Positions 7,463 to 44,879 of a DNA stretch of 45,508 bases are shown here, piece by piece. Both the position numbers and the translations under genes were made by a program. The notes below the pieces were generated by a model, which was not told the DNA's origin, searched no databases, and saw only the letters and a list, made by a program, of their open reading frames with translations. The stretch comes from Patescibacteria group bacterium. GTDB lineage: Bacteria > Patescibacteriota > Patescibacteriia > UBA11705 > JABHMO01. The stretch is taken from positions 1-45,508 of the forward strand of contig JAHIRY010000040.1 of NCBI GenBank assembly GCA_018818405.1, read 5' to 3'. Every line of letters starts with the position of its first letter. Within the stretch, counting starts at the first letter, position 1.

Positions 7463-7586
7463 TTTAAATTGTTCGGCGATCGTCCTCCTTCGCTGAAGCA
7501 GCGGAGGATAAATCTAAATTCTTTTATAAAATTTAAATTGTTCGGGGATCGTCCTCCTTCGCTGAAGCTACGGAGGATAAATCTAA
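7463..7586 (+). repeat. Tandem imperfect 55-bp direct repeat (69-bp period): tRNA-Gln 5' end plus inserted hairpin
   Basis: 7463-7517 vs 7532-7586, 52/55 identical by manual alignment. Confidence 0.9.
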
Positions 7587-7644
7587 TGGTAGGACTCCAG
7601 GTTTTGGTCCTGGCTATCTAGGTTCGCCCCGTCGCCGGACGGGG
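7542..7644 (+). pseudogene. Disrupted tRNA-Gln copy
   Basis: Matches the intact tRNA from 5' end to GGTTCG but has a 30-nt insert in the D stem; after the T loop it continues as hairpin CCCCGTC-GCCG-GACGGGG with no normal T stem, acceptor end or CCA. Confidence 0.8.
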
Positions 7645-7671
7645 TGACACCTTGAACAATTGATACTTTAT

Positions 7672-7745
7672 TCGGGGATCGTCTAATGGTAGGACTCCAG
7701 GTTTTGGTCCTGGCTATCTAGGTTCGAATCCTGGTCCCCGAGCCA
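7672..7745 (+). tRNA. tRNA-Gln(TTG)
   Basis: Acceptor TCGGGGA/TCCCCGA, anticodon arm CCAGG-TT TTG GT-CCTGG, GGTTCGAATCC T arm, discriminator G, encoded CCA. Confidence 0.97.
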
Positions 7746-7747
7746 TG

Positions 7748-7777
7748 AACTACTCGCTTTTTTAGGCGGGAGTTTTT
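7748..7777 (+). terminator. Intrinsic terminator after tRNA-Gln
   Basis: Bulged stem AACTACTCGCTT/AGGCGGGAGTT followed by T run. Confidence 0.55.
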
Positions 7778-7912
7778 GTTTTACCGAAGTATGCGAGAGT
7801 TCGTGGCAGGCTCTTCAATTCACTATTTTTGATTATATATATATTGGTTCGAATCCTTCTTTGGTTGTTTAATCGCCCATATATAGTATAATAAATTTTA
7901 GATTTAACATTT

Positions 7913-8326
7913 ATGACAGATTATACAATCATTTCAAAATTTAGAAATAAAGAAAATTGTGATCTACTTGCTAAAAAATTAGAAGAGAAAGGCAAGAGTT
8001 GTTACAATTTTTGTAATAAGCCCGCTGATCCCAATAATCCCGAAGCTCATCCGGAAGAACAAATGAGGGTATTCGAGGAAACAAAAGATTTTTTTAATAA
8101 TGAATATTTTAAAAAAGTTTTCAAGGAAGATCTAGCCGGATTAAAGAATGCTAATACGGTAATCATGCTATTGCCGGCAGGAAATTCAGTTCACATAGAA
8201 GCTGGCATTGCATACGGTCTAGGAAAGAAACTTGTGTTAATAGGAGAGCCGGAAAAGCCTGATAGTCTTTATTTAATATTTCATAAAAGATACAAAGATA
8301 TTGATGAATTTTTAAAAACTATCTAA
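7913..8326 (+). CDS. Nucleoside 2-deoxyribosyltransferase-like (NDT) protein
   Basis: DLAGLKNANTVIMLLPAGNSVHIEAGIAYGLGKK fits the NDT D...D...ExGxAxxLGK pattern. Confidence 0.75.
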   Translation: MTDYTIISKFRNKENCDLLAKKLEEKGKSCYNFCNKPADPNNPEAHPEEQMRVFEETKDFFNNEYFKKVFKEDLAGLKNANTVIMLLPAGNSVHIEAGIAYGLGKKLVLIGEPEKPDSLYLIFHKRYKDIDEFLKTI

Positions 8327-8450
8327 TTCAGTTCTAACATTGTCCGCGCCCCCGAGCCATGAATAATTTTCAATTATTATATCATAGAAACGGGGATGAG
8401 AAGTTTATTCCGAGGATGATGTGATAGAAATAACGATTCCCGAGACAACG

Positions 8451-8479
8451 AAAAAAACTCAGCTTTGTGAGTTTTTTTT
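8451..8479. terminator. Bidirectional terminator-like hairpin
   Basis: AAAAAAACTCA...TGAGTTTTTTT. Confidence 0.6.
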
Positions 8480-8592
8480 GAGTTACTGTACTAGAATAAA
8501 AAGGGAACCCCGATCAGATAGGCTATTCCATATATAATGGAAAAATAAACAAAACACTCTTTAAACCTGCTAAAAAATATTCCCAAGAATTC

Positions 8593-8781
8593 TTATTTGG
8601 ACTTATATGCTGTTTGATAAGTATCTAACAACTTACGCTGTTCCTTAATTGCCCCCTCCGCCGCTTTTTGAACAATTCTCTTTTGCTCTCGAGAAGACAA
8701 TCCAAAAAATGTTACCTCTTTTGAAGTACCAATTCCGAAAAATTTTTTCATTATACTTTTCATAAAGAAATTATACAACAT
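8593..8781 (-). CDS. Small protein overlapping the zeta toxin stop; candidate antitoxin or partner
   Basis: 62 aa, ATG overlaps the zeta gene end by 11 nt. Confidence 0.55.
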   Translation of the reverse strand: MLYNFFMKSIMKKFFGIGTSKEVTFFGLSSREQKRIVQKAAEGAIKEQRKLLDTYQTAYKSK

Positions 8782-9478
8782 TTCTCAATACCTTGTCTAA
8801 TGACATAATATCATACTTATTTTTTATGAAAATGTCAACCTTGTCAATATTTATCTTAAAAGTCTTCGCGGTATTATCAATATTTTTTTCAACAAAATAT
8901 AATAAAACATTATCCTTAAAATATTCTTTTATTTTGTTCGTTGTTTCAATGGAATTAAAATATTTTTCTATAAAGGCTTCTTTAGGAACCCTTCGACCTT
9001 CTATTTTTTCTCTTTTCTTTGTAAAATCCCAAGCAATTACTGGATTTTGATAAATAAAGAAAATACCAACCATCCGCCGCCTACGTAAGGTTCTTTTAAT
9101 ATTGCTTACCTGCTTATCATAATTACAAAAAGTACTATCCATAATACAATTATACTTTTTTTGTAGAACAAAATCGTACAACTTCTCTACTCCAAGATTA
9201 CAAGCTGATTGTACCAAATCTGAATTTTTTCCATCATATGACGGGAGGGCATATCTTATTTCATCTGCATCAATACGAACAAATGGTTTTCCCAGCAGCG
9301 ATATAAGAGTCTTGGCGAATTCTGTTTTTCCAGCGCCCGGTGCTCCTGCCATGAAAAATGTAATTGGGTTGGTCACTGGTTCGACATTAGATTTTTTTAT
9401 ATAATCTTCAACTATCTTTTTTTTATTTGTTTTAAGAAACTCCAATGCCCCTAATTGTATTTCTTTATCCTTTAACAT
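8771..9478 (-). CDS. Zeta toxin family P-loop kinase
   Basis: Walker A GAPGAGKT, RIDADEIR, IMDST, ExRxV motifs. Confidence 0.85.
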   Translation of the reverse strand: MLKDKEIQLGALEFLKTNKKKIVEDYIKKSNVEPVTNPITFFMAGAPGAGKTEFAKTLISLLGKPFVRIDADEIRYALPSYDGKNSDLVQSACNLGVEKLYDFVLQKKYNCIMDSTFCNYDKQVSNIKRTLRRRRMVGIFFIYQNPVIAWDFTKKREKIEGRRVPKEAFIEKYFNSIETTNKIKEYFKDNVLLYFVEKNIDNTAKTFKINIDKVDIFIKNKYDIMSLDKVLRNVV

Positions 9479-9639
9479 ACCCTGATATTATACATGGATT
9501 ATACTTAAATTTTCAACACCAGCCTCAGCGGCAAGTCCTAAAAAACTCACTTCAGTGTGCTTTTTGTGTTACAACTTGAAATTTAATTTTAATTGTGATA
9601 AGTTATCACTTAATGAAAATTCAAAGAGGAGGCAAGCTC

Positions 9640-10335
9640 ATGGGAAACGGACAACAGCCGAATCATTTGAAAATGCTCTTTAACAAAAAACTGGAAGTGC
9701 TAATCAGCCTTATACTTTCCACGGCGACAGATTGTTTGCATCCGGAGGAAGTCAAACAACTTAAAAAATTACAAAGTATTGCCAATCGTGGAGAAAAAAC
9801 TTGGAAAAGATTGCCGCTGAATACTGCTTATGATGCTTTGTTTTTTATTTTGTACGGATTTCGACCGACGGATTCACCCGAAGACATAAAAACTCTTGTA
9901 ATTGCCAGGGCAAAAATCATTGTTGATTTGATAGCGGGACAAGACAAATGGAATTTCGCGGATTTATTTAAAATCTGGGAAAAAACCACCTTAATCGGTA
10001 ATACCGTTTCCAATCCGGTCATTGGCGCGCGGTTGGTGACATTGCACAGCTGGCAAAGATTCTATTCGAGAAATCCGACAAACACAATTATTAGCGAGAT
10101 ATTGAAAAAAAATTTCACCGACGCTTTCGAGCTGGCAGTCCCGGAAAAATTAAGCGGAAAGGCGCTGGTTGACCGATTGATCCAAAATAAATTCGAACCG
10201 GTATTATACCTCAGGTGCGCAAAACGAAATTTACGATTTGTCGTGCATGATTATGAAGAATCAAACGGCAACAAAGGCGCGATACTAACAGTTGAAGTTC
10301 CTCTGATTTCCAGACATCATCGCGAGCGATGGTAA
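9640..10335 (+). CDS. Hypothetical protein
   Basis: ORF with GAGGAGG SD 7 nt before ATG 9640; upstream TTGAAA-N17-TAAGTT with extended TG. Confidence 0.7.
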   Translation: MGNGQQPNHLKMLFNKKLEVLISLILSTATDCLHPEEVKQLKKLQSIANRGEKTWKRLPLNTAYDALFFILYGFRPTDSPEDIKTLVIARAKIIVDLIAGQDKWNFADLFKIWEKTTLIGNTVSNPVIGARLVTLHSWQRFYSRNPTNTIISEILKKNFTDAFELAVPEKLSGKALVDRLIQNKFEPVLYLRCAKRNLRFVVHDYEESNGNKGAILTVEVPLISRHHRERW

Positions 10336-10407
10336 AAACAGACCGCAGGCAAAATTGCCGGCGGTCATTTTTTTTATTTTTAACAATTCGCGAGAAAATA
10401 AATCGGA

Positions 10408-10548
10408 TTATTTTTTTCCTTTGCCCGATGTTCTCGCGGCGGCAAAACGGGAAGTCTCCGAACCGCTTACTTTGGAAGAAGAACCGCGCGGACGCAATTT
10501 GTCTTGTTTTCTCTGCAAATATTTTTGCATCGGTGTTTTGTATTTCAT
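10408..10548 (-). CDS. Putative small basic protein (46 aa)
   Basis: Below ORF-track cutoff; MKYKTPMQKYLQRKQDKLRPRGSSSKVSGSETSRFAAARTSGKGKK; extended -10 TGATATAAT just upstream. Confidence 0.4.
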   Translation of the reverse strand: MKYKTPMQKYLQRKQDKLRPRGSSSKVSGSETSRFAAARTSGKGKK

Positions 10549-10657
10549 ATGGCAATGTCATTATATCATTTTTTTCATTTAAAAATAAAATAATCGCGCA
10601 AATCTTTTTCATGTCTCTCAAAATATGCTATGATGAATTTGCAAATAAAAATAAAAT

Positions 10658-11995
10658 ATGGATTCAGAAAAAAAAGCTTATGTTGTCGCGGTTGACATGG
10701 GATACGGGCATCAGCGAGCCGCCTATCCCCTGCGAAAGCTGGCGGTAAATAATAAAATCATAAATACCAATTCTTATCGCGGCATTCCCAAGTCCGACAA
10801 AAAAATTTGGCAAACAAGCCGGGAATCTTATGAATTCATTTCCCGATTCAAAAAAGTTCCGATTCTGGGAGAAGCCGCTTTTGACATTTTTAATCTGCTG
10901 CAAAGCATTCCGGATTTTTATCCCAAAGAAAATCATTCCGCGCCGACGCTCCAGCTGAAATACATTTATCATCAAATAAAAAGCAAAAAATGGGGAAAAC
11001 ATTTAATTGAAGAGCTGAGCAAACGGCCGCGTCCGCTCATTACCACCTTTTTCATTCCCGCGCTAATGGCCGATTATTACAATTATCCCGGAGAAATTTA
11101 TTGTCTGGCGACTGACACGGACATCAGCCGGGCGTGGGTGCCGATGAATCCCAGGAAAAGCAAAATCAAATATTTCTCGCCGAGCTATCGCGTGGCGCAA
11201 CGATTGAAATTGTACGGAGTGGATGAAAAAAACATTTTTGTCACCGGATTTCCCCTGCCCGATGAAAATGTCGGAAAAAACGAAATCATTGTAAAACAAG
11301 ATCTGGGAAAAAGGCTTTTCAATCTGGATCCGAAAAAAATTTACACAAGCAACTACAGAGAAACTATTTGCCAACATCTGGGAGCAAAAAATTTTCCAAA
11401 GAAAAAATGCCATCCGCTAACGCTGATGTTCGCGGTCGGCGGAGCGGGCGCGCAAAGAGAATTGGGAATCAGAATTGTAAAAAGTTTGAGAAAAGAACTA
11501 AAAAACAACACTCTAAACATTATTCTGGTCGCCGGAATTCACAATGATGTCAGCCGATATTTTCGCAATGGCATCAACAAGCTCGGCCTGAGAAAAAATC
11601 TGGACAAAAACATTAAAATAATTTACAGCCAGAACAAGCATAATTATTTCAAGAAATTCAACCGCGCCCTGAGGCACACTGACATTCTCTGGACAAAACC
11701 GAGCGAACTCAGCTTTTACACCGCGCTCGGCCTGCCGATAATCATGTCCGAGCCGCTCGGATCGCAAGAAGTTTTCAATCAACACTGGCTAAGGACTCTC
11801 GGTTCGGGCATAAATCAGGAAAATCCCGATTATACCAATCAATGGCTCTTTGACTGGCTGGACAGCGGCTGGTTTGCCGAGGCGGCAATGGACGGATTTC
11901 TGAAAGCATCGACTCAAGGTCTGGAAAATATCGATAAAGTCATTCATCACAAACCGGAAAAAACGGTCAGCATTACAAAAGTATTGCCATATTAA
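10658..11995 (+). CDS. Glycosyltransferase-like protein (GT-B; MGDG synthase/UgtP-like)
   Basis: N-terminal DMGYGHQRAA resembles GxGHxxAA; GFPL, GGAG, TKPSEL and LGLPII resemble the GT28 C-terminal domain. Confidence 0.6.
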   Translation: MDSEKKAYVVAVDMGYGHQRAAYPLRKLAVNNKIINTNSYRGIPKSDKKIWQTSRESYEFISRFKKVPILGEAAFDIFNLLQSIPDFYPKENHSAPTLQLKYIYHQIKSKKWGKHLIEELSKRPRPLITTFFIPALMADYYNYPGEIYCLATDTDISRAWVPMNPRKSKIKYFSPSYRVAQRLKLYGVDEKNIFVTGFPLPDENVGKNEIIVKQDLGKRLFNLDPKKIYTSNYRETICQHLGAKNFPKKKCHPLTLMFAVGGAGAQRELGIRIVKSLRKELKNNTLNIILVAGIHNDVSRYFRNGINKLGLRKNLDKNIKIIYSQNKHNYFKKFNRALRHTDILWTKPSELSFYTALGLPIIMSEPLGSQEVFNQHWLRTLGSGINQENPDYTNQWLFDWLDSGWFAEAAMDGFLKASTQGLENIDKVIHHKPEKTVSITKVLPY

Positions 11996-12019
11996 AAAAG
12001 AGGCTGACGCCTCTTTTTT
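11994..12019. terminator. Bidirectional terminator between convergent genes
   Basis: AAAAAAGAGGC-TGAC-GCCTCTTTTTT. Confidence 0.85.
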
Positions 12020-12052
12020 GAAATAATCGAATCGGAAATAAAAAGATCGGGT

Positions 12053-13666
12053 TTATTTTTTCACGCAAGCGGAAACAAACGCGTTGAACAGCGGATGGCC
12101 GGTGAACGGTCGGGATTTGAATTCCGGATGAAACTGCGTGGCAACGAAAAACGGATGACTCGGAATTTCAATAATCTCGGCCAGCAGTCCGTCCGGAGAA
12201 TTTCCGGCGATCATCATTCCGTTTTTTTCTAATATTTCACGGTAATCATTGTTCAATTCATAGCGATGGCGGTGCCGCTCGGAAATATTTTCCATTCCGT
12301 AAGCGGAAAAAGATTTTGAACTTTTTTTCAGAACGCACGGATAATCGCCGAGCCGCATGGTCGCGCCGTAATTTTTCTGTTCTAGATTTTTTATTTGTTC
12401 CGGCATTACATGGATCACTTGATCTGACGCGTTCGGATCAATTTCCTGCGAAGTTGCGCCGGAAATTCCGCAAACATTGCGCGCGAATTCAATGAACGCG
12501 AGCTGCATGCCGTAGCACAATCCGAGAAAAGGAATATTATTTTCTCTCGCAAATTTAATGGCCATCATAATTCCTTCCGTTCCCCTCGCGCCAAATCCGC
12601 CGGGCACAACAATGCCGTCAACTTGCGGCAATTCATTTATTTTTTGCGGATCATTTTCATATTCTTCCGAATCAAGCCATAAAATTTTCGGAATTCTTCC
12701 ATTCAACCACGAAGCGTGATTGATGGATTCAATCACTGAAATGTAAGTGTCTCGGCAGGATTTCAAATTAAAATATTTTCCCACAATTCCAATAGTCACT
12801 TCATCGGACAAATTTTTTATTTTTTCCGATAACGATTCCCATTCGCTCAAATCCGACTGCCGAGCTTCCAGATTCATCGCTTTGAGCAACACCTCGCCCA
12901 AATTTTCTTTTTCAAAATTAACGGGAATATCGTAAATCGAATTCACATCAGGCGCGGAAATAATTCTTTCTTTCGTCAGACTGCAAACCGTGCTGATTGT
13001 ATTCTTGATAGCATCGCCGACCGGACTCTCTGCTCGGCACAAAATAAAATCAGGCGCTATTCCGGCTGAATTCAGAGTTCTGATCGCGTATTGCGTCGGC
13101 TTTGATTTTTGCTCGCCGAGAAGACGAGGCGTCGGCAGATAGCTGACCATGACAAAAGAAACATCTTCCGGATTTTTCGCTTTCATCATGCGCGCGGCTT
13201 CCAAAAACAATAATAATTGATATTCTCCGACAGTGCCGCCGAGCTCGACAATCGTCACTTCAGAGTCATTTTTTTCCTGGCATTGCATGATTCTCCGAAT
13301 AATTTCATTGGGAATATCGGGAACAACTTCCACATCTTCGCCATTATATTCCAGATTTCGTTCTCGGCGAATGACTTCCTGATATACTTGGCCGGTGGTG
13401 ATATAATTGTCGCGCGTGCAAATCTGATCGGTGAATCTTTCATAATTTCCCAGATCTTGATCAGCTTCCACTCCGTCCATTCCGACAAAAACTTCGCCGT
13501 GCTCAGCCGGACGAATGGTTCCCGCGTCAATATTCACATACATGTCGCACTTGATATTGGCAATGCGAAAACCTTTTGATTTTAAAATACTTCCCAGCGA
13601 AGCGGCGGCCACGCCTTTTCCCACAGAGGACATTACTCCGCCAACAACAAAAATAATTTTTTTCAT
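12053..13666 (-). CDS. pyrG: CTP synthase
   Basis: GGVMSSVGKG, VPGGFGARG, GLCYGMQ, RHRHRYE, QFHPEF. Confidence 0.98.
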   Translation of the reverse strand: MKKIIFVVGGVMSSVGKGVAAASLGSILKSKGFRIANIKCDMYVNIDAGTIRPAEHGEVFVGMDGVEADQDLGNYERFTDQICTRDNYITTGQVYQEVIRRERNLEYNGEDVEVVPDIPNEIIRRIMQCQEKNDSEVTIVELGGTVGEYQLLLFLEAARMMKAKNPEDVSFVMVSYLPTPRLLGEQKSKPTQYAIRTLNSAGIAPDFILCRAESPVGDAIKNTISTVCSLTKERIISAPDVNSIYDIPVNFEKENLGEVLLKAMNLEARQSDLSEWESLSEKIKNLSDEVTIGIVGKYFNLKSCRDTYISVIESINHASWLNGRIPKILWLDSEEYENDPQKINELPQVDGIVVPGGFGARGTEGIMMAIKFARENNIPFLGLCYGMQLAFIEFARNVCGISGATSQEIDPNASDQVIHVMPEQIKNLEQKNYGATMRLGDYPCVLKKSSKSFSAYGMENISERHRHRYELNNDYREILEKNGMMIAGNSPDGLLAEIIEIPSHPFFVATQFHPEFKSRPFTGHPLFNAFVSACVKK

Positions 13667-13692
13667 AATTCAAACAACTGAAATTTTATTTT

Positions 13693-14139: not shown

Positions 14140-14167
14140 AAAATTTTACAATTATCCTCCTCATTAA

Positions 14168-15433: not shown

Positions 15434-15483
15434 AAAGATACGGCAATAAAATATTTATCGAAATTTTCAAACTATTTATTTTA

Positions 15484-16737: not shown

Positions 16738-16803
16738 AAATTTATCACAAAAAAGTAATATAAATTATACAATGCCAGTTTATCACAAATTTTTCCTAAA
16801 ATA

Positions 16804-16827
16804 AAGAAGGGGCTTTCACCCCTTCTT
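16804..16827. terminator. Terminator hairpin downstream of the 957-aa gene
   Basis: AAGAAGGGG-CTTTCA-CCCCTTCTT. Confidence 0.7.
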
Positions 16828-16842
16828 GTATCTCTAATTCAC

Positions 16843-30874: not shown

Positions 30875-30910
30875 CGCGAGCCGGACATTCCGGACTCGCG
30901 CTTTTTTTTT
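30875..30910. terminator. Terminator between convergent genes
   Basis: CGCGAG-CCGGA-CAT-TCCGG-A-CTCGCG followed by T run. Confidence 0.75.
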
Positions 30911-32714
30911 ATTCATTTACTCTTTCTTTGTTTTCTCGCACAACCTTTTCAATGAATTCCGTGAATGGAATCGCGCCCAAATCGCCTTTGCCGTGCCGGC
31001 GGACAGCTACTGTTTTGTCTGTCTCTTCTTTTTCTCCGACAACCAAGAGATACGGAACTTTTTCTTTTTCACCGTTTCTTATTTTCTTTCCCAGTGATTC
31101 ATCATCATTATCGAGAACAACGCGAATTTCATTTTTCTTCAATTCCCGCGTTATTTCCTCTGCGTATTGATTGAACTTTTCCGAAATTGGCAGGACTTTC
31201 ACCTGAACCGGAGACAGCCACAGCGGAAAAGCGCCGGCATAATGTTCGATCAGCAAACCGATGAATCTTTCGAACGAACCCATGAGCGCGCGATGCAGCA
31301 TATACGGCCGTTCTTCTTTTCCTTCCGAATTGATATAGGTCATGTCAAATCTTTCCGGCAAATTGAAATCAAATTGAAGAGTGGAACATTGCCATTCTCG
31401 GCCGAGCGCGTCTTTAACTTTGTAATCCAGCTTCGGTCCGTAGAACGCGGCTTCACCTATTTCTTTTGAATATTCGATTCCCAGTTCAGAGGCGACTTTT
31501 TCCATTACAGCTTCAGTGAATTCCCAGCCTTCATCATTGCCCGTGTATTTTTCCTTGTTCGCCGGATCGCGCAATGACAAATAAATTTTATAATCGGAAA
31601 AACCGAATGAATCGAAAATATATTTTATAAAATTCGCCACTCGCTTTAATTCTTCCGCCACTTGCTCTCTCGTGCAAATGATATGCGCGTCATCCTGAGT
31701 AAATCCGCGAACGCGAGTCAATCCGGACAATTCGCCGGATTTTTCATAACGATAAACAGTGCCGCATTCCGCCCAGCGCAGAGGAAGATCTTTGTAAGAA
31801 TGCATTTCGGATTTGTAAATTTCAACATGAAACGGACAATTCATCGGCTTTAGCAAATATTCTTCTTTCGGTTTGTCCGAACCGGCGGAAGTTTGCTGTT
31901 CTTTCAATGATTTGCTCACTTCGATTGACGGATACATGCTCTCATTGTAAAAATTCCAATGTCCGGAAGTTTCCCAAAGCGCGCGACTGCCGATGTGCGG
32001 ACCGCGCACCAATTCATAACCGTTTTCCAGATGCGCTTTGTACCAAAAATCTTCAATCACCCGCCAGAGCATCGCGCCTTTCGGCTTCCACAGAGGAAGA
32101 CCGAGGCCGACGACCGGATCGAGAACAAACAAATCTTTTCCAATAACGCGATGATCTCTTTTTTCCGCTTCTTCCAAAAGATTCAAATAATTTTCCAATT
32201 CTTCATTCGTTTCAAATGCCAAGCCGTAAATTCTCTGAAGCATTTTGTTTTTTTCATCGCCCCGCCAATACGCGCCCGCCAACTTTTGCAATTTAAATGC
32301 GCCGATCTCGCCGGTTGACTCAACATGAGGACCGCGGCACATGTCTTCGAAAACAACATTGCCGTCTTTGTCGATATTTTTGTAAAAACTTATTTCCGTT
32401 TCTCCTTCGCGCGCCAGATCGTCAATCATTTCATGTTTATATTCATTGCCTTTAACTTTTTCCAAAGCTTCGGAAATCGGCAATTTATATTGTTCAAATC
32501 GGTATTTTGCTTTTACAATATTTTTCATTTCTTTTTCCAGCCGTTTCAAATCTCCCGGAGCAAAAGATTCTTCACCCAGATCAAAATCATAATAGAATCC
32601 ATTGTCAATCGCCGGTCCGATAGTTAATTTCGCGTTCGGATAAAATTTCAATACAGCCTGCGCCAAAATGTGCGAAAGAGAATGGCGCATGATTGTTAAT
32701 TTTTCATTGTCCAT
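30909..32714 (-). CDS. thrS: Threonine--tRNA ligase (no N-terminal TGS domain)
   Basis: RHSLSH, DMCRGPHV, RDHR, KPMNCPFH, LTRVRGFTQDDAH, GSFERF; start MDNEK at 32714. Confidence 0.97.
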   Translation of the reverse strand: MDNEKLTIMRHSLSHILAQAVLKFYPNAKLTIGPAIDNGFYYDFDLGEESFAPGDLKRLEKEMKNIVKAKYRFEQYKLPISEALEKVKGNEYKHEMIDDLAREGETEISFYKNIDKDGNVVFEDMCRGPHVESTGEIGAFKLQKLAGAYWRGDEKNKMLQRIYGLAFETNEELENYLNLLEEAEKRDHRVIGKDLFVLDPVVGLGLPLWKPKGAMLWRVIEDFWYKAHLENGYELVRGPHIGSRALWETSGHWNFYNESMYPSIEVSKSLKEQQTSAGSDKPKEEYLLKPMNCPFHVEIYKSEMHSYKDLPLRWAECGTVYRYEKSGELSGLTRVRGFTQDDAHIICTREQVAEELKRVANFIKYIFDSFGFSDYKIYLSLRDPANKEKYTGNDEGWEFTEAVMEKVASELGIEYSKEIGEAAFYGPKLDYKVKDALGREWQCSTLQFDFNLPERFDMTYINSEGKEERPYMLHRALMGSFERFIGLLIEHYAGAFPLWLSPVQVKVLPISEKFNQYAEEITRELKKNEIRVVLDNDDESLGKKIRNGEKEKVPYLLVVGEKEETDKTVAVRRHGKGDLGAIPFTEFIEKVVRENKERVNE

Positions 32715-32895
32715 ATTTTTATAAGCGAGAAAGCGTAAAAGCGAGATAAGTTTACCCCGCCCGCGGCGGGGCGAGTTAAGCATATGCAGCGGCGGATTGC
32801 ATCCGCCGAAACGTCGTGTCGCGACGCAAAATCTTGCGCCCAATTCTAAATAGTCTTAACGCATTTTATTTGCTTTGACGCATTCGTTTATTAAT

Positions 32896-33130
32896 AAAAA
32901 AACCAAGGTCATAAAAATTAACCTTGGGGTCCCACCAGACAGCCTGCCGTCCATTTTATCTTTCGAAATTAATAAAATCTGACGGCCTGCCGTCCGCAGC
33001 TCCGCAGAGCGCAGGACGGTTCCACCCAAGTTTCTCTGAAATTTTTCAGAGACACTCTTTTCGCCAAAACTTAGTTTAGCTCTTCGCTAAAATCCGAGTC
33101 GGATAATCGGTTGGTGGCCGATTCAATCGT
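32896..33130 (-). promoter_or_regulatory. T-box riboswitch (Thr specifier ACC) with intrinsic terminator
   Basis: T-box AGAGAAACTTGGGTGGAACCG; antiterminator CTTGGG/CCCAAG and GTCC/GGAC flanking the UGGAACC bulge; overlapping terminator CCAAGGT..ACCTTGG-T7; stem ATCGG-CCACCAA-CCGAT. Confidence 0.85.
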
Positions 33131-33144
33131 TTTGAACTGTTTGC

Positions 33145-34465: not shown

Positions 34466-35278
34466 TCACAGCGGACTTTTTATATTTCGCAAAGCCATGT
34501 TGGTCAGATGCGTGTAAATTTGCGTTGTTCGGATATTTTGATGGCCGAGGAGTTCCTGCACATAGCGCACGTCCACTCCGTTTTCCAGGAGATGCGTGGC
34601 AAAGCTGTGGCGCAAAGAATGAAAAGTTGCTGATTTCCCAACTTTTGCTTTCTTCAATGCATTCTCAAAAATTTTCTGCGCGGTTCTCTCGGTCAATCTG
34701 CCGCCGCGCTCGCTTTCCAGTAAAAATTCATCAAAATCACGACAGCCAATCATTTTTATCAGGTCATCTTTCAGTTTTTCCGGAATTACTGAAATTCGAT
34801 CTTTTCCTCCTTTCGATTGTCTGATCGCAATTTGCAAATGAACGCAATCGATGTCTTTTATTTTTAATTTTACAATTTCCGAAACACGAAGTCCCGAGCC
34901 ATAAGCAAGCGCAATAAGCATCCGATGTTTATTATTTCTGATGGAAGCAAGAATTACGGCAATCTCTTCTCGAGAAAAAATTACGGGCAAGCGTTTCGGT
35001 TTGCGCGCATATTTCAAATTAATGCAAAACGGCGCTTTTACTATATTCTCATAAAAAAACTTGATTGCATTCAATCGCACATTAACGGTTTGACCGGAAA
35101 TGCCGCGTTCCAACAAACCCGCCAAATACTTTTTCGTCTTGTATTCATCGAATTTTTCAAAATCACAACCCAAATATCTGAAATAATCCTCAATACAACT
35201 CAAATAACTTTTCACAGTACTCCGGCTGTAATTTCGATACTTCAATTCAATTTCCATTTTCTCAATCCATTGTTGCAT
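34466..35278 (-). CDS. Tyrosine recombinase, IntI-like but lacking the IntI-specific insertion
   Basis: YSxxT..Y SAM-like N-domain, PKRLPV, GLRVSE, KGGKDR, HSLRHSFATHLL, LLGH, TQIYTH; only about 20 aa between the KDR strand region and the pre-HxLRH helix. Confidence 0.93.
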   Translation of the reverse strand: MQQWIEKMEIELKYRNYSRSTVKSYLSCIEDYFRYLGCDFEKFDEYKTKKYLAGLLERGISGQTVNVRLNAIKFFYENIVKAPFCINLKYARKPKRLPVIFSREEIAVILASIRNNKHRMLIALAYGSGLRVSEIVKLKIKDIDCVHLQIAIRQSKGGKDRISVIPEKLKDDLIKMIGCRDFDEFLLESERGGRLTERTAQKIFENALKKAKVGKSATFHSLRHSFATHLLENGVDVRYVQELLGHQNIRTTQIYTHLTNMALRNIKSPL

Positions 35279-35401: not shown

Positions 35402-35622
35402 AAATACATGTTTTCCTTTTGGGGCTATCGCCCCAGCTCTTAAAAAGAATCCGATTTTGTTTTTCTTTTATTATAGAGGGGAAATATGGAGTTTTCTTCG
35501 CTACGCTACGAAAACATTTATTTTATAAGGGGAATAAGCGGTATTTCCTCCGCTTCGCTCCGGAAACGGTTTATTTATTAGGGGAAAACGAATACAATAA
35601 CATTTGTTAAAACATAATAACT

Positions 35623-38214: not shown

Positions 38215-38216
38215 AC

Positions 38217-38474: not shown

Positions 38475-38478
38475 AACT

Positions 38479-40980
38479 ATGCTTACATCAGAAACAAAAC
38501 GACATATTGATGCGGCTAGGCAAGTCCTCGTGGGCGTAGTGCCAAACCCAACATCACAAATTGATCAGATTACCAACGCGCTGATCTATAAATTTATGGA
38601 TGACATGGATCAATCGGCTATAAAAGCCGGTGGCTCACCATCTTTTTTTACTGATGATTTGGAAAGATATGCTTGGACACGCCTGATGGATAGCAGACTT
38701 GGCAATCAAGAAAGAATGAATCTGTATTCAGAAGCTCTGATTAAATTTTCGCAAGCTAAACAATTACCCGAACTTTTTAGAAATATTTTTAAATCCGCAT
38801 TTTTGCCATATCGCTCACCGGAAGTTTTAGGATTATTTTTAAAAGAAATAAATTATTTTGATTATTCTCACCCAGAAGATTTGGGCGATGGCTATGAATA
38901 TTTGCTTTCAATCATGTCCTCTCAAGGCGATGCAGGACAATTCCGCACCCCTCGCCATATTATTGATTTTATCGTTGATGCTATCAACCCGACAAAAGAC
39001 GACAAAGTACTTGATCCTGCTTGCGGAACAGGTGGATTCTTGGTCAGCTCATACAAGCATATATTAGAACAACACGACGGCAAAAATGATCCGGAAAAGA
39101 AAGAAAAACCGCTCACCCCAGATGACAGAAGAAAACTTTTTCAAAACTTTGAAGGATATGATATCGATCCAGGCATGGTGCGAATTGCGCAGGTCAATAT
39201 GTATCTGCATCAATTCAAAAATCCGAAAATTTTTCAATACGACACTTTGGGAATGGATGAACGCTGGAATGACAAGTTTGATGTAATACTCGCCAATCCG
39301 CCGTTTATGTCGCCAAAAGGTGGTGTTCGTCCGCATAGTAAATTTAGCGTGCAGTCGAGCCGATCAGAGGTTTTGTTTGTGGACTACATCATGAACCACT
39401 TGAAACCCAAAGGCCGAGCAGGTGTAATCGTACCAGAAGGAATTATTTTTCAATCAGGAAGTGCGCACAAACAACTTCGCAAAAACCTCGTCAATGACGG
39501 GCTGTATGCAGTCGTGAGCTTGCCAAGTGGAGTGTTTCAGCCATACAGCGGTGTAAAAACCAGTATTTTGCTTTTTGATAATGAACAAGCGAAGCAACGA
39601 AGTGAGGTTTTGTTTGTAAAAGTGGAAAATGACGGCTTTGATCCGGGCGCAACAAAAAGACCTATTAGCAAAAACGATTTGCCGACTGCTTTGGATATTT
39701 TAGACAAATGGAAAACTGGCGAGAAAGTGGAAAGCAAGTTGGCGGTTTATGTAGAAAAATCCAAAATTGCTGAAAACGGAGACTACAATCTTTCCGGTGA
39801 TCGCTATCGTGTAGCAACAGATTACAGCAATGCAAAATGGCCGATGGTGGAGTTGGGAGAGGTTTCAGAAATATTAAACGGCTACGCTTTCAAGAGTGAA
39901 AAATACACAAACAATGGTATTCGAGTTATTCGAATTACAAATGTACAAAAAGGTAAAATTGTTGATGATGATCCTAAGTTTTACTCTGAAGATTCAATTA
40001 ACGAAATTGGGAAATTTTTACTCGCTAAAAGTGATCTTTTGATTTCTCTCACTGGTAATGTCGGTAGAGTTGGATTGTTACAATCTGACTTATTGCCAGC
40101 CGGACTGAATCAACGAGTTGGTTGTATTCGTCTAAATGACAGCAAACAAGTTTCAATCAGTTATCTTTTTCATGTATTGAATACAGAATTATTTGAAGAT
40201 GATTGTATAAGAGCTTCAAGTGGTGTTGCACAGAAAAATTTAAGTACAGAATGGTTGAAAAAATATCAAATTCCTGTCCCACCTCTCGAAATTCAAGAGC
40301 AAATTGTGGCCGAGTTGGACGGCTACGCAGGCATAATCTCCGGCGCCAAACAAATCTCCCAAAATTGGAAACCAAAAATTGACATCGATCCGGAGTGGGA
40401 GAAAGTGAAGCTGGGGGAAATTGCAACGCTTGTTCAAGGTATAAATACTGCGGTGGATAAGCTTCACTATATTGAAGATGGTATAAAGGTTTTGCAAGCA
40501 AATAATATTTATCAAGGATCTGTGAATTTTGATAATTTAAAATTTATAACTGCAAAAGAATTTTCAGCGATTAACACAAAATACAAACCCACGAAAGAAG
40601 ATGTTTTATATTCAAATATCGGTGCTAGATTTGGGTATGCTTCAACTATAGATTTTGATGATAAATTTACATTTTCCTGGAATGTTATGAGAATGGTTAT
40701 TTTAGATAAATCAAAACTAGACAAATTTTATCTAAAAAATATTCTTAATTCTGATTTACTTCGACAGGTTGTGCTAAGTCAAGCATCAACAAGTACGATG
40801 CCATTTATATCTGGAAAAGATTTGAAGGCAATCGAAATCCCTCTTCCACCTCTCGTTATTCAAAAGCAAATCGTGAAAAAAATCGAGGCCGAGCGCACGC
40901 TGGTGGAATCTGCCAAAAAGTTGATTGATATTTACGAAGAAAAAACAAAAGAAACGATTTCTAAACTGTGGAATGAATAA
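38479..40980 (+). CDS. hsdM-hsdS: Fused type I methyltransferase-specificity subunit (HsdM-HsdS)
   Basis: GQFRTP, DPACGTGG, NPPF (m6A); two target recognition domains closed by PPLEIQEQIV and PPLVIQKQIV. Confidence 0.92.
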   Translation: MLTSETKRHIDAARQVLVGVVPNPTSQIDQITNALIYKFMDDMDQSAIKAGGSPSFFTDDLERYAWTRLMDSRLGNQERMNLYSEALIKFSQAKQLPELFRNIFKSAFLPYRSPEVLGLFLKEINYFDYSHPEDLGDGYEYLLSIMSSQGDAGQFRTPRHIIDFIVDAINPTKDDKVLDPACGTGGFLVSSYKHILEQHDGKNDPEKKEKPLTPDDRRKLFQNFEGYDIDPGMVRIAQVNMYLHQFKNPKIFQYDTLGMDERWNDKFDVILANPPFMSPKGGVRPHSKFSVQSSRSEVLFVDYIMNHLKPKGRAGVIVPEGIIFQSGSAHKQLRKNLVNDGLYAVVSLPSGVFQPYSGVKTSILLFDNEQAKQRSEVLFVKVENDGFDPGATKRPISKNDLPTALDILDKWKTGEKVESKLAVYVEKSKIAENGDYNLSGDRYRVATDYSNAKWPMVELGEVSEILNGYAFKSEKYTNNGIRVIRITNVQKGKIVDDDPKFYSEDSINEIGKFLLAKSDLLISLTGNVGRVGLLQSDLLPAGLNQRVGCIRLNDSKQVSISYLFHVLNTELFEDDCIRASSGVAQKNLSTEWLKKYQIPVPPLEIQEQIVAELDGYAGIISGAKQISQNWKPKIDIDPEWEKVKLGEIATLVQGINTAVDKLHYIEDGIKVLQANNIYQGSVNFDNLKFITAKEFSAINTKYKPTKEDVLYSNIGARFGYASTIDFDDKFTFSWNVMRMVILDKSKLDKFYLKNILNSDLLRQVVLSQASTSTMPFISGKDLKAIEIPLPPLVIQKQIVKKIEAERTLVESAKKLIDIYEEKTKETISKLWNE

Positions 40981-40987
40981 ATAAATT

Positions 40988-42781
40988 ATGCCTCATATAA
41001 TCAAGCACAATTTACTGAAAAAAACTCTCGACGAAATCGCAGAGACTGCGCCGGATCATCTGACGATTTACCATCCGGACGAGAGCGATCAAGATGGCCA
41101 AATTCACAAATATTCTCGGACACAAATCCACCTTTTTTTAAGAGTCCATTTTGGATTATTAGACTTTAATATTGCCGAAGATCAGATTACTGACGGCACA
41201 GATGACGGTGGTCTGGATGCGTATCATATTGACGCAGAAAAGAAAACTATCTATCTTATACAATCAAAATATAAAACTACCCCGGAAGGATACCTTAACA
41301 ATGATGTCGATTGGCGCGAATTCTTTAAAATGGAGCTAGATCGTATTGTCCAAGGCGAAACGGCCTCGTCATCAGGTCACCAATATAATGGAAAAATAAG
41401 AGGTCTCCAACAAAAAATTGGAGAAATTGCTGATATAGCACGGTGGAACTATACACTGATATATTTAGGAAATGTCCCTTCTGCTATTACAAAAGAAAGG
41501 TTGTTAACTGTCAGCGGTGGAGTTTGCACAAACACAGAGATACTACACGGAAACGATTTCTATAACCAAGTTTTAATCCCATATCTTAAGCGTGACTTTT
41601 ACGACAAAGAAGACTTCTCCTTTGAGATATACATCAATCAAGAACGATCAGCAAATCGTATCAGATATTCCGTTGATTTAGCTGATGGCGAATCTGCGGA
41701 GGTCCAGCTTTGTTTTGTCCCAACAATGGAAATAGCAAGGATGATGTCGCAATACAGAAATTCGATTTTACAATACAATCCACGTTGTTATGTAGGTATC
41801 AAAAATACCGGTGTTAATGCTGACATCAGAGACTCAGTTTCTAACACGGCACATAATGAATTTTCATTACTTAACAATGGCATTACCGTTGTCTGCAATG
41901 AGGTAAATTACAACGATAATACTGCGCAACGAGGAAGAGCTTCAATTACTGTATCTAATCCACAGATAGTAAATGGCGGTCAAACAGCGTTTACTTTAGC
42001 ACATCTATTTGAGAATAATTCTGACAATTCAATTTTTGACGGAAAAGAAGTTCTCACAAAATTTATAATTATTGTAGGCAATCGAGATGAAATGATAGAA
42101 AAAATATCTAATGCTACCAATAATCAAAATCCAATAAGGCCAAGGGATAAAGCCTCAAATGATCTAAAAATGATTCAATTGCAGTCGGGCCTCTTTGATC
42201 AATATGGCGTTCTACTCGAAAGAAAGCAGGGAGAATTTTATGACTCGATAAAAGAGGGTCTTATAGACAAAAAAAATGTAATAGACAGCGTTATTCTTAT
42301 GCGTCTTTTGCTTGTATATCGTGGTTCAGTTGCAAGAGCAAGAAGTGCTGGAGAGGGTGTGCTTTTTAGAGATTACAACCTTGACGGAGTTGAAGTTAGC
42401 GAAATTTATAAGCTCATTCGAATTTACAATAAAATCTCTAATCTCGACCAACCTAGTGAAAGAGATGGACGAAAACGTTACCAAATTAATATCTGGGGTA
42501 ATGGACTTAGATACGGTCAATGGGCTATTATATATGCAGTTTATCAATTATCTAAATCCGGTGAAAATCTTAATGATTGTTTGAATCGTGTTCAATCACG
42601 ATGGATAGATTTCGAAACTACTGTTGCAAATCATGAACATAATCAAAGTTATTCTTCTGACGGCTTCGATTATGCAAACTATTATAAAGGAAGTACCATT
42701 GATCGAGATTTAAATGAATATATCCCTAATATAGGAGAATTAGTAGAATCAAAAACCGATGTGGAAATTCCGAAGATATAA
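40988..42781 (+). CDS. AIPR family (abortive infection phage resistance) protein
   Basis: DGTDDGGLDA...IQSKY nuclease-like N-terminus; NPRCYVG, LLNNGIT, PQIVNGGQT, ATNNQN. Confidence 0.88.
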   Translation: MPHIIKHNLLKKTLDEIAETAPDHLTIYHPDESDQDGQIHKYSRTQIHLFLRVHFGLLDFNIAEDQITDGTDDGGLDAYHIDAEKKTIYLIQSKYKTTPEGYLNNDVDWREFFKMELDRIVQGETASSSGHQYNGKIRGLQQKIGEIADIARWNYTLIYLGNVPSAITKERLLTVSGGVCTNTEILHGNDFYNQVLIPYLKRDFYDKEDFSFEIYINQERSANRIRYSVDLADGESAEVQLCFVPTMEIARMMSQYRNSILQYNPRCYVGIKNTGVNADIRDSVSNTAHNEFSLLNNGITVVCNEVNYNDNTAQRGRASITVSNPQIVNGGQTAFTLAHLFENNSDNSIFDGKEVLTKFIIIVGNRDEMIEKISNATNNQNPIRPRDKASNDLKMIQLQSGLFDQYGVLLERKQGEFYDSIKEGLIDKKNVIDSVILMRLLLVYRGSVARARSAGEGVLFRDYNLDGVEVSEIYKLIRIYNKISNLDQPSERDGRKRYQINIWGNGLRYGQWAIIYAVYQLSKSGENLNDCLNRVQSRWIDFETTVANHEHNQSYSSDGFDYANYYKGSTIDRDLNEYIPNIGELVESKTDVEIPKI

Positions 42782-42977
42782 AATAATAGTGTGTTTTCGG
42801 TCGGGGCAATTCACCCCTTTTCTTCCCCTCTTGCCCCTCCCTCAAACAGAAATAGGAGTTTTGGGCTTCGGGCATTCACCCCTAACCCCTCTGCCCTTCG
42901 CCCAAAACAGAAAAACAAAATCAGATTCTTTTTAAGAGCGATTTGCTATCGCAAATCAAAAGGAAAACATGTACATC

Positions 42978-43104
42978 ATATAACACTGCGTATGCGGTTA
43001 CGGCTTGCTCCGTACCTCCGCAAGCCTACACCCATATTTGCCAGTGGTAAGCACTTCGTGCAATTATACCACTGGCAAACATCGCATACGCAGGAACGTT
43101 AGCT
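42978..43104 (+). other. attC-like site 1 (127 bp)
   Basis: ATATAAC...GTTAGCT; arms CTGCGTATGCG/CGCATACGCAG. Confidence 0.85.
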
Positions 43105-43123
43105 GAAATTTTAAAATTTATTT

Positions 43124-43837
43124 ATGCCTGAAAAATATAATAATCCGTCGCCCCCAGAAAAAGAAAGTGGATTTTATAGCGACATCGTTCGGCGGTATGA
43201 AACAGAAGTAAATCGCTTTGTTCCAGGTTATGCTGAGGAAATTGTTCCTCTCGTAACTGGTGAAGTAATCAGAAAAGCTCATAACGGAGCTGTTTTAGAC
43301 CTTGGCTCTGGCGTAGGGAATGTAGATGAAATCATTATAGATCAAGCAAACCCTCAATCCATTGACTTAGTTGAAATTTTAGAGCCAATGATTGAAGAAT
43401 CTAAAAAGCGATTGGAAGATAAAAATTCCACCATTCGTTTTCATGAGATGTCCGCTGAAGATTTTGAAGCCGAACCAAATAGTTTTAATGCAGTACTGTC
43501 AAACCTTGTTATTCACAATATCCCTTATGAAGACAAAGTTAGACTTATAAGCAATATTCATAAGTGGCTTAAAGATGGTGGAATTTTTATCTGGACTGAT
43601 CTTGTGAGCTTTTCTGATACCGCCGAACTCGAAAGATGTTTTGAAGAGCGTAAAAAAATAGCCATTTCGATGGGGGCGACTGAGGAATTCGCAGAAGAGA
43701 ATTTTAAAAAGGAACGAGAAGAAGATAATATGATTACCGTTGAACAAATGACTGAAATGCTACAACAAGCTGGTTTTCAAAATATTGAAATTCTCTGGAC
43801 TCGGTACAATGAAGTGGTCATGCGAGCAACGAAATAA
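43124..43837 (+). CDS. Class I SAM-dependent methyltransferase (loosely CmoA-like), cassette 2
   Basis: VLDLGSGVG motif I, NLVIHN, LKDGGIF. Confidence 0.85.
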   Translation: MPEKYNNPSPPEKESGFYSDIVRRYETEVNRFVPGYAEEIVPLVTGEVIRKAHNGAVLDLGSGVGNVDEIIIDQANPQSIDLVEILEPMIEESKKRLEDKNSTIRFHEMSAEDFEAEPNSFNAVLSNLVIHNIPYEDKVRLISNIHKWLKDGGIFIWTDLVSFSDTAELERCFEERKKIAISMGATEEFAEENFKKEREEDNMITVEQMTEMLQQAGFQNIEILWTRYNEVVMRATK

Positions 43838-43850
43838 ATTTTAAAACATC

Positions 43851-43926
43851 AGCTAACATTGAATATCTGGTTCCGCTTCGCTCCACCCAAATTGCTCGCA
43901 ACTTCAGATATCCAGAAACGTTGTAC
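43851..43926 (+). other. attC-like site 2 (76 bp)
   Basis: AGCTAAC...GTTGTAC; arms TTGAATATCTG/CAGATATCCAG. Confidence 0.85.
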
Positions 43927-44174
43927 GAAATTCCAACTAGTAAACGAGGTAGATTGAAAGTTTGTGCAAACAAAAAAGCACGTCTTAAAAACGAACTTTT
44001 AACTGATTACCCGTCGGAACTGTCGTACAACACCGAGTATGCGGTTGCGTGAAGAAGAAATTATTGATTTTTCTTTTCATTTTAAATCTGGCTCTTTTCA
44101 ATTTTTTCTATCAGAAAGTGAAGCGCCCTGCCCGAGATGTCTCGAACAGGGCGTGATCTATGACATGAAGGAAG

Positions 44175-44549
44175 CTACGGACCCTCGAACATGATCCGCC
44201 TGCCAACCGCCCGATTGTATGCGCTGTCCTCTCCCGTCAAATCCTTTGACGTATTGTTACCCATTGCGAAAATGGTTGCGAACAGATCTGACACCATCGG
44301 GCGATCAATGCTGTCAAGTGCCAGAAGCGCTGTAAACACTGAACTGACTGGATCAGAACTCCCTGTTGCATTGTCGAGGTTGTGAGTCGAGAACTCTCTG
44401 TGAGACACCACGTATCCACCATCAGGGTTATAGCTCTTGAGCCACGCTTCCCTGTCTTTGATGAAAAGTGCTGCATCATCACCACTCAGAAGATGCCAAG
44501 AGGTTGCCAGTTCGGCACCCTCAGCGACACGCACGAAAACATGCTTCAT
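44175..44549 (-). CDS. Hypothetical 124-aa protein inside attC3, antisense to the array
   Basis: AGGAGG SD 7 nt before ATG; own promoter; hairpin 44124-44153 after the stop. Confidence 0.7.
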   Translation of the reverse strand: MKHVFVRVAEGAELATSWHLLSGDDAALFIKDREAWLKSYNPDGGYVVSHREFSTHNLDNATGSSDPVSSVFTALLALDSIDRPMVSDLFATIFAMGNNTSKDLTGEDSAYNRAVGRRIMFEGP

Positions 44550-44589
44550 GTTTTACCCTCCTAAATTCGTCGCGGAATTGCGACTTCAT

Positions 44590-44619
44590 ATATTAGCAGA
44601 TCCACACCCCACCTGTCAA
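44590..44619 (-). promoter_or_regulatory. Promoter of the attC-embedded gene
   Basis: TTGACA-N18-TAATAT with extended TG. Confidence 0.65.
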
Positions 44620-44879
44620 GCCAACGAGGGACGAAAAAATTGAAAAGAGCCCTAAATTAAGGAAAAAAATCAATAATTTCTTCTTCACTCCACCCAAATC
44701 CCGCTCTTGAAATTGAGGGTTTTAAGGGGTAAAATAGGTTGGTGTTGAAGCGAAAGTTTGTACTAAAAACGAAGGGCGGGACTTCGCATACTCGGGGACG
44801 TTAAACGTAATCAGTAAAGTGGCTATAAAGTGGAAGTCGTTCCGATAACTTTTTTAATTAGTATCATTTTTTAATTAAC

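Follow-up and report, generated by a model that had tools for sequence, protein, structure and literature searches.

A hairpin with a TNC/TNC internal loop recurs in the 45,508-nucleotide contig JAHIRY010000040.1 of a Patescibacteria group bacterium (assembly GCA_018818405.1); this whole stretch, contig C16 of a 1.06-Mb, 48-contig genome with 41% GC, is referred to here as the window. With moderate confidence, we consider the hairpin to form the core of tiny palindromic insertion modules, 25-50 nt in size and carrying no gene, which make up one family widespread in the ultra-small Patescibacteria. Such modules would lie in or beside already structured sequence, most exactly at tRNA-gene ends, and would spread as DNA. 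The folding strand would be the one reading GNA, where sheared G.A pairs, G.T wobbles and compact GNA, TTTA, CTTG and CCTG loops could form. Other contigs of the same genome are given below as C numbers and other genomes as G numbers.

A conserved core inside variable stems

All hairpins listed in the original prediction were found in their places, with the sequences as written (Table 1). With a descriptor that requires an outer stem of at least 5 bp, TNC, an inner stem of 2-4 bp, a loop of 3-5 nt and TNC, the genome gave 23 matches, whereas 40 dinucleotide shuffles averaged 4.9 +/- 2.4 and never exceeded 11, which upholds the expectation that the motif is commoner than in shuffled sequence. 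The reversed genome, in which hairpins are preserved and TNC becomes CNT, gave 2 matches. The window alone holds 4 descriptor hairpins versus 0.23 expected, and the GC-cored copies are intergenic without exception. Among the hairpins of the genome, TNC/TNC together with its complement GNA/GNA forms the top class of 3x3 internal loop (23 of 288). Two further copies in the window had not been listed, namely a degenerate one at 7484-7507 (CCTCC-TTC-GC-TGAA-GC-AGC-GGAGG), in which the second loop is AGC, and a long-loop hairpin that has a counterpart at G017:C3:12567-12617.

Across 41 relatives from the same family, order and class, the core CTNCGC-N3-4-GCTNCG was matched 516 times, versus 98 times for the backwards control; single genomes gave, for example, 34 versus 2, 40 versus 6 and 23 versus 2, and the enrichment is patchy over a 150-genome sample of the phylum. 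In 106 distinct copies N is mostly T or A, with TT (31), TA (29) and AT (22) as N/N pairs, and the commonest apical parts are GC-TAAA-GC (17), GC-CAAG-GC (7), GC-TGAA-GC (5) and GC-TAC-GC (5). The conserved core reads C-TWC-GC[TC]-loop-[GA]GC-TWC-G, W being mostly T or A. The outer stem was tested from an anchor consisting of the 3' half and tail only, (A/G)(A/G)GC-TNC-GGNNGG-CAGG, with a search of up to 60 nt upstream. An exactly complementary 6-nt arm followed by TNC was found at 34 of 41 anchored sites, and five arm variants occur among them (GGCTGG, GGCGGG, GGATGG, GGACGG and GGTTGG). On the evidence of these sequences, the outer stem is a real covarying helix. The core is indeed shared, and the common origin that had been suggested is very probable, since C-TWC-GC..GC-TWC-G lies within unrelated covarying stems, in all the contexts that had been listed, and recurs phylum-wide; we regard a common origin of the TNC/TNC hairpins as well supported.

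Other identities of the motif were considered and rejected. A 3-bp target duplication was rejected for TNC, because the two N's differ in most copies and T and C are fixed. The C(UNCG)G RNA tetraloop is not a general alternative fold because it requires a 3' arm beginning with GG, and the geometries of the kink-turn and the bulge-helix-bulge do not match because the TNC loop is a symmetric 3x3 loop. Neither does the motif behave as an intrinsic terminator: the TNC hairpin precedes CAGG and a repeat of the 5' arm, with no direct U run, a U-rich stretch is found behind only some copies, and several relatives have a separate terminator further downstream. No Rfam family matches the TNC modules: in the window and at 13 loci surrounding other copies, the only hits were tRNA, tmRNA, 16S and a sub-threshold T-box.

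Modules at tRNA ends and in the thrS leader

Hairpin positions were compared over 1.89 Mb of pooled sequence, namely this genome, 400 kb from G017 and parts of other genomes selected around pattern hits. Of 177 hairpins, 53 directly adjoin the end of a tRNA, a position that by our estimate accounts for about 0.15% of the searched sequence. Thirty-five of them lie at a 3' end with TNC on the sense strand and 17 at a 5' end with TNC on the antisense strand, leaving one exception; therefore the TNC strand reads out of the tRNA gene and the GNA strand reads into it. The stem of the 3' modules opens with the encoded CCA, which pairs with the TGG of the 3' arm (CCAGCC/CCATCC ... GGCTGG/GGATGG); behind the stem come four loop nucleotides (CAGG or CAAG) and CCA once more. 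The 5' modules are inverted, and their arm includes nt 1-5/6 of the tRNA, as in the example on C47 (GGCGGG-CCTG-CCCGCC-GGA-GCT-CGC-AGC-GCA-G, then GCGGGT). The modules in leaders repeat, in inverted form, the trailer family of their own genome, and in G017 duplicates of tRNA nt 1-12 are fused to a TNC module upstream of three tRNAs. A 3' module of the form CCA-arm..arm'-TGG-C(A/G)(A/G)G-CCA is borne by 17 of the 44 tRNAs of this genome, of which 4 only have the TNC core and 13 are perfect hairpins of the TGAAGT/TGAACC type; the 9 modules on the 31 tRNAs of G017 are all of the TNC type. The module layout predates the TNC core.

Presence or absence at orthologous sites together with a target repeat, by which miniature mobile elements are recognised, was found at the tRNA-Ile(GAU) 3' end, at tRNA-Asn and in the T-box upstream of thrS. 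Nine copies of the tRNA-Ile(GAU) 3' end were compared within one family. Two are empty, the next tRNA following after 1-2 nt (G004a and G001), three carry TNC modules with three different arm sequences (this genome, G002 and G007), and four carry another module of the TGAAGT/TGTAGT type (G009, G012, G004b and G010), with CCA repeated behind each module. At tRNA-Asn, a 19-nt palindrome is flanked by two copies of CGGAGCCA. As regards the insert reported in a tRNA of the window, the hairpin is present, but its host is a truncated duplicate of tRNA-Gln (nt 1-56) and not a working gene. The intact gene sits 100 nt downstream of this duplicate, and the shorter duplicate 1 shares the insertion. The module at the 3' end of the intact gene, one of the 13 of the TGAAGT/TGAACC type, has the layout of the TNC modules without TNC loops.

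The leader of thrS at 32896-33135 on the minus strand has the parts expected of a T-box, with GGGUGGAACC, an A1 helix CUUGGG/CCCAAG, an A2 helix GUCC/GGAC, a competing terminator with a U run and thrS downstream. This layout is common to 8 related genomes and is canonical in the relatives, where the bulge reads UGGAACC. The A2 stem GUCC/GGAC is conserved; its loop is plain in G014, G001 and G012, and it carries a TNC module with a CAGG/CGGG tail in the window, G010 and G024, G010 and G014 being members of the same genus. Judged from these orthologues, the T-box hairpin is an insert in helix A2 that has no counterpart in some of them. With the Rfam model RF00230 the window leader reaches 21.4 bits, where the gathering score is 93; the TNC insert may be the reason.

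As the chief alternative, the modules might be working parts of transcripts, that is, tRNA leader and trailer structures which guide processing, protect ends or decide termination, with the T-box using the same device as an antiterminator. The module borders do coincide with mature tRNA ends, which are defined only in RNA. If X denotes the first arm, X' the complementary arm and X2 the repeat of X after the loop, X and X2 both pair with X' and therefore either X:X' or X':X2 forms. Two mutually exclusive hairpins are thus permitted, which is the antiterminator/terminator logic of a T-box, and the X'-CAGG-X2 hairpin often stands before a U-rich stretch, e.g. GGCGGG-CAGG-CCCGCC-TTTTTATTTT on C47. 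A module at tRNA-Gly(UCC) is moreover retained across families. The motif is, however, inverted between the 5' and 3' sides, and the RNA would therefore carry GNA loops in leaders but UNC loops in trailers; the stem mismatches are mostly A.C in the trailer sense and so unpaired in RNA. Orthologous tRNA ends are empty or carry unrelated hairpins inside one family and even one genus, only 17 of 44 tRNAs in this genome bear any such module, and no Rfam family is matched. We regard a role in transcripts as possible, though clearly on the doubtful side.

Other repeats were observed around tRNA genes and hairpins. Tandem arrays of 2-4 units stand behind tRNA-Met, tRNA-Leu and tRNA-Lys (C2:1-260 and 840-1100, C18:1-235 and C17:20100-20360; loci L010, L005 and L004). 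Each unit consists of an AT-rich spacer of about 25 nt and a hairpin with a conserved GAGAAGCCTGCCCTGAG in its loop, whose arms are a copy of the T-stem 3' strand of the parent tRNA, and closes with the acceptor 3' strand of the parent tRNA and CCA. Throughout the genome the word GGCAGGC(C/T) occurs beside several unrelated hairpin families, among them TNC tails, CTTCGGCAGGCTCAGTGTGAC hairpins, the tRNA-end arrays and CCGCAGCGTGCGGGG-CAGGC (e.g. window 7805, 32948 and 32991; C14:69301-69737 and 95533-95619; C35:7110-8766), and may be a shared end or recognition word. A CCCC..GGGG hairpin followed by TGACA lies upstream of tRNA-Gln (window 7627-7649) and also at C40:99222-99256, between a second tyrosine recombinase gene and tRNA-Arg, and could be a shared att-like or promoter-side element. 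The most abundant repeat of this genome, with about 37 copies, is a double hairpin CCACCGCAGCGTGCGGGG(T/A)(T/C)CCGCTCACAGCGGGACGAATT, often in tandem and beside arrays of 7-8 nt (e.g. C38:20881-20945 and C34:21342-21592).

attC-like sites, folding strand and candidate enzymes

Each of the three attC-like sites of the window can be parsed from AAC-A through an 11-bp arm and hairpin 1 (GT-TNC-stem-TNC-AC) to a linker, followed by hairpin 2, the second arm and RAC-GTT. G017 has three sites of the same type, and further ones were found on C5, C23 and C48; their hairpin 1 contains TNC loops, and hairpin 2 often does too. When checked against the core sites RYYYAAC/GTTRRRY, all three start with ..AAC-A and end with ..AC-GTT, and GTTRRRY is fully fitted only by the GTTAAAC of site 3; GTTAGCT and GTTGTAC do not fit. 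In site 3, hairpin 1 has 30-bp arms around about 590 nt, within which a 124-aa open reading frame (44175-44549, minus strand) has no Pfam or NCBIfam match. The 270-aa tyrosine recombinase beside the cassettes of the window scores 223.8 bits with the integron-integrase model TIGR02249 against a cut-off of 265 and in a two-stretch alignment, and 213.5 against 220 with an archaeal XerA/integron model. The site hairpins listed earlier, with their TNC loops, are borne out; the attC label given to them rests on a recombinase that falls below the integron-integrase cut-off.

Leaders homologous to that of hsdR occur at C1:1919-1943 and G017:C3:7825. A regulon signal was rejected for the leader hairpins, the downstream genes being unrelated (hsdR, a short-chain dehydrogenase and an HD-domain protein). 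Copies in attC-like sites and leaders lack the CAGG tail and the target repeat, and therefore their mode of origin is less clear. Between 36000 and 44000 in the window the GC skew switches sign and GC falls to 37-38% across type I restriction-modification, AIPR and methyltransferase cassettes, which fits a foreign origin of this region.

The GNA strand is predicted to be the more stable one in 99 of the 106 copies, with RNA and DNA energy parameters alike. Whatever the parameters, non-Watson-Crick stem positions on the TNC strand are A.C more often than G.T (22 versus 9, p=0.03) and would therefore be wobble (G.T) pairs on the GNA strand. In the apical and tail loops (TAAA, CAAG, TGAA and CAGG, with complements TTTA, CTTG, TTCA and CCTG) the first base is complementary to the last. 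The predominant ones follow YRRR on the TNC strand and, on the GNA strand, YYYR, and an L1-L4 pair closes them; loops of these classes make compact DNA tetraloops of type I and type II (PMC9975016). Copies with a 3-nt loop read GCGNAGC on the GNA strand, as GCGTAGC (35491-35515) or GCGAAGC (35544-35566 and 43870-43886), which matches in sequence a known DNA mini-hairpin, GCGNAGC (PMC13037366). Taken together, this speaks for selection or origin at the level of DNA, with a weak lean to the GNA strand. No replichore bias was seen: along G017:C3 20-380 kb, which is one replichore by GC skew and gene strand, TNC lies 12 times on the minus and 10 times on the plus strand, and in the window both orientations occur on one skew arm. 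The orientation tracks the tRNA end and not the replication strand. The earlier proposal of selection as folded DNA on a specific strand is thus weakly supported by the predicted fold and the A.C excess, but not as a strand preference with respect to replication.

It had also been suggested that these elements may share a recognising enzyme, and that a RAYT/IS200-type HUH transposase should be looked for. An enzyme of this kind, or else the integron-like recombinase, would recognise single-stranded DNA and act on all the hairpins through the GNA/GNA fold. Y1 transposase genes and the integron-integrase-like recombinase are indeed present in the genome. In classical attC sites it is the bottom strand that recombines, and its equivalent in the attC-like sites is the GNA strand. 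The GNA strand is also predicted to fold better, with loops known to be stable in DNA (PMC13037366, PMC9975016). The candidates nevertheless have hairpins of their own. The RAYT-like gene at C29:7885-8470 (PF01797, 2.8e-08) is flanked by three copies of its own GTAG-type repetitive extragenic palindrome (REP), GTAGAGACGCATTGCAATGCGTCTCTAC, the IS200-like copies end in CCCCG..CTTG..CGGGG hairpins, and neither type has TNC/GNA loops. One further GTAG REP lies in frame within the coding sequence of the RAYT-like gene. All Y1-gene flanks were inspected, and their hairpins differ from the TNC modules. The TNC hairpins lack GTAG and none lies at the RAYT-like gene, which speaks against a REP/RAYT assignment; the different ends of the insertion sequences and the 12 to 10 strand split, unlike the replichore bias of IS200/IS605, speak against an IS200/IS605 derivation.

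Neither candidate enzyme co-varies with the motif. Y1 copy number is not significantly related to core excess (rho 0.25, p 0.11), and four genomes with 10-23 cores (G016, G021, G028 and G030) have no Y1 match. Similarly, the presence of a close orthologue of the 270-aa recombinase does not track the number of motifs (Mann-Whitney p 0.59), and G006, G033 and G038 have 23-41 cores without a close orthologue. We consider a single enzyme of either kind improbable.

The best lead for a partner enzyme, and only a lead, is a small stand-alone GIY-YIG nuclease (PF01541). This genome has four such genes. Three stand behind a module, no more than 110 nt from a tRNA, and another hairpin family frames the fourth. 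Both here and in G017, a GIY-YIG gene that follows tRNA-Pro and precedes the next tRNA has modules on its two sides, one direct and one inverted; these are of the TGAAGT type in this genome and TNC modules in G017. The more GIY-YIG copies a genome has, the larger its core excess tends to be (rho 0.52, p 0.0005; p 0.004 when permuted within kinship groups). Genes of 80-90 aa were seen at C17:19706-19945, C47:2511-2777, C48:26259-26495, C14:69379-69579 and G017:C3:325831-326067, each of them following a tRNA-end module or enclosed by inverted hairpin repeats. Four relatives lack such genes, and most have 1-8 of them. As a long shot, one may imagine a homing system for the ends of structured RNA genes, in which GIY-YIG nucleases cut tRNA boundaries, arm-pairing modules are copied in as folded single-stranded DNA and the GNA fold chooses the strand, with later co-option into T-box antiterminators and into folded sites at which an integron-like cassette system without the IntI domain recombines.

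Table 1. Positions of the TNC/TNC hairpins and associated features in the window
Feature	Position	Strand	Sequence or basis
Duplicate 1, a decayed 5' part of tRNA-Gln (AAATTG + nt 1-11) joined to the degenerate hairpin	7466..7507	+	CCTCC-TTC-GC-TGAA-GC-AGC-GGAGG
Duplicate 2 of tRNA-Gln, nt 1-~56, ending within the T loop; 30-nt insertion after nt 11, by comparison with the intact gene	7535..7626	+	
TNC/TNC hairpin in tRNA-Gln duplicate 2	7552-7577	+	TCCTCC-TTC-GC-TGAA-GC-TAC-GGAGGA
Intact tRNA-Gln(UUG)	7672..7745	+	ARAGORN and Rfam
3' module of another family on intact tRNA-Gln	7743..7813	+	CCATGAACT..[46]..AGTTCGTGG-CAGG
thrS (threonine-tRNA ligase), behind T-box	30909..32843	-	TIGR00418, 713.8 bits
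A1 3' strand (CCCCAAGG) and terminator hairpin with U run	32896..32929	-	
Probable original A2 hairpin, displaced by the module	32947..32985	-	CCGUC-[AU-rich loop]-GGACGG; inferred from orthologues
TNC/TNC module and tail in helix A2	32981..33019	-	CCGTCC-TGC-GCTC-TGCG-GAGC-TGC-GGACGG + CAGG + CCGTC
T-box hairpin	32990-33019	-	CCGTCC-TGC-GCTC-TGCG-GAGC-TGC-GGACGG
T-box sequence of the thrS leader	33018..33027	-	GGGUGGAACC
A1 5' strand	33025-33031	-	ACUUGGG
270-aa tyrosine recombinase, integron-integrase-like	34466..35278	-	PF00589, 2.9e-40
Leader of hsdR	35468..35588	+	Three TTTATTWTAKAGGGGAAWA units with hairpins a and b between
hsdR leader hairpin a	35491-35515	+	GTTTTC-TTC-GC-TAC-GC-TAC-GAAAAC
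hsdR leader hairpin b	35544-35566	+	TTTCC-TCC-GC-TTC-GC-TCC-GGAAA
Long-loop TNC/TNC hairpin, preceding attC-like site 1	42858-42908	+	GTTTTGGGC-TTC-GGGCA-[17]-TGCCC-TTC-GCCCAAAAC
attC-like site 1	42980..43103	+	ATAAC-A-11-bp arm, hairpin 1, hairpin 2, arm, GAAC-GTTAGC
Site 1 hairpin 1, nested TAC/TAC and TCC/TCC	42997-43031	+	GT-TAC-GGCTTGC-TCC-GTACC-TCC-GCAAGCC-TAC-AC
attC-like site 2	43852..43926	+	Hairpin 1 at 43870-43886, GT-TCC-GC-TTC-GC-TCC-AC
attC-like site 3	44027..44806	+	Hairpin 1 arms 44044-44073 and 44662-44693, TGC and TCC loops

Strength of the module hypothesis and comparison with known systems

Several points weigh against insertion modules as the explanation. The module before tRNA-Gly(UCC), which is inverted, is syntenic across families (this genome, G017, G020 and G023), which is as compatible with a retained function as with mobility. 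Ordinary transposition does not account for arms that match the target. Neither the CAGG tail nor the target repeat is present in the leader hairpins (35491 and 35544) or in the tRNA-Gln insert, so that these may arise differently from the other modules. Mobility itself is deduced from compared genomes. The energy parameters themselves account for part of the advantage of the GNA strand, and the wobble asymmetry is weak (22 versus 9), some of the copies being related. GIY-YIG copy number and motif count each correlate with genome size too (rho about 0.33-0.35), and their mutual correlation may reflect a general load of mobile DNA.

Convergence of the GC-rich hairpins of AT-rich genomes on a few stable loop and mismatch motifs, with no shared origin, would suit the mixed contexts (tRNA ends, T-box, attC-like sites and leaders), the instances without a CAGG tail and the generically stable loop types (PMC9975016), but is improbable given that the copies have the whole core in common, closing pairs and inner GC(TC) stem included and not loop ends alone, that the reversed-pattern control is five times rarer, and that other abundant hairpin families (TGAAGT type, CCGCAGCGTGCGG and GTAG REPs) are without TNC/TNC.

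A literature search did not find such modules described. If they are insertion modules, one of the closest likenesses is to the hairpin elements of fungal mitochondria, which are also GC-rich, tens of bases long and intergenic in compact AT-rich genomes, show insertion polymorphism and a short target repeat, have no transposase of their own and lie beside tRNA genes in Neurospora. The elements reported here are, however, bacterial and have another core sequence, a base-exact fusion to tRNA ends, a strict orientation rule and arms complementary to the target; we know of no counterpart of the conserved 3x3 TWC/TWC loop described in the mitochondrial elements. The small dispersed repeats of heterocyst-forming cyanobacteria are likewise palindromic mobile units. 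They were reportedly described by Elhai and colleagues in 2008 as mobile palindromes of 20-30 nt that insert into repeats and structured RNA genes with no associated gene, a lack they share with the present modules; they differ in phylum and sequences and, to our knowledge, have not been described as tied to exact tRNA-gene ends or as having target-matching arms.

REP/RAYT systems resemble the modules in being many-copy short intergenic palindromes thought to work as folded single strands, and this genome does have a RAYT-like gene with REPs. Those REPs, however, are the GTAG-hairpin family, whereas the TNC modules are without GTAG, are not beside the RAYT gene and are present in genomes without any Y1 gene. 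IS200/IS605 elements offer a parallel, in that their hairpin ends act as single-stranded DNA and a short internal sequence beside the hairpin pairs with the target. In contrast to these, the modules are 25-50 nt long, have no gene and show no lagging-strand bias, and the genome's own IS200-like copies have unrelated ends. Integron attC sites share imperfect palindromes bounded by ..AAC and GTT.., a location between same-strand cassettes near a tyrosine recombinase, and mismatches that make the two strands fold differently. On the other hand, the sites here can be parsed as three-way junctions, the neighbouring 270-aa recombinase does not reach the integron-integrase cut-off and aligns in two stretches, and the loop motif is far commoner at tRNA ends, where there is no cassette array.

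If confirmed, the modules would be a bacterial counterpart to the hairpin elements of fungal mitochondria, with the unusual traits of exact fusion to tRNA ends, strict outward orientation and arms matching the target, the last of which points to target recognition by base pairing. They would explain odd inserts in tRNA fragments, riboswitches and recombination sites of candidate phyla radiation (CPR) genomes, where they would also matter for annotating tRNA genes and T-boxes. Their strand-asymmetric G.A design would also offer a simple test of selection for folded single-stranded DNA in genomes.

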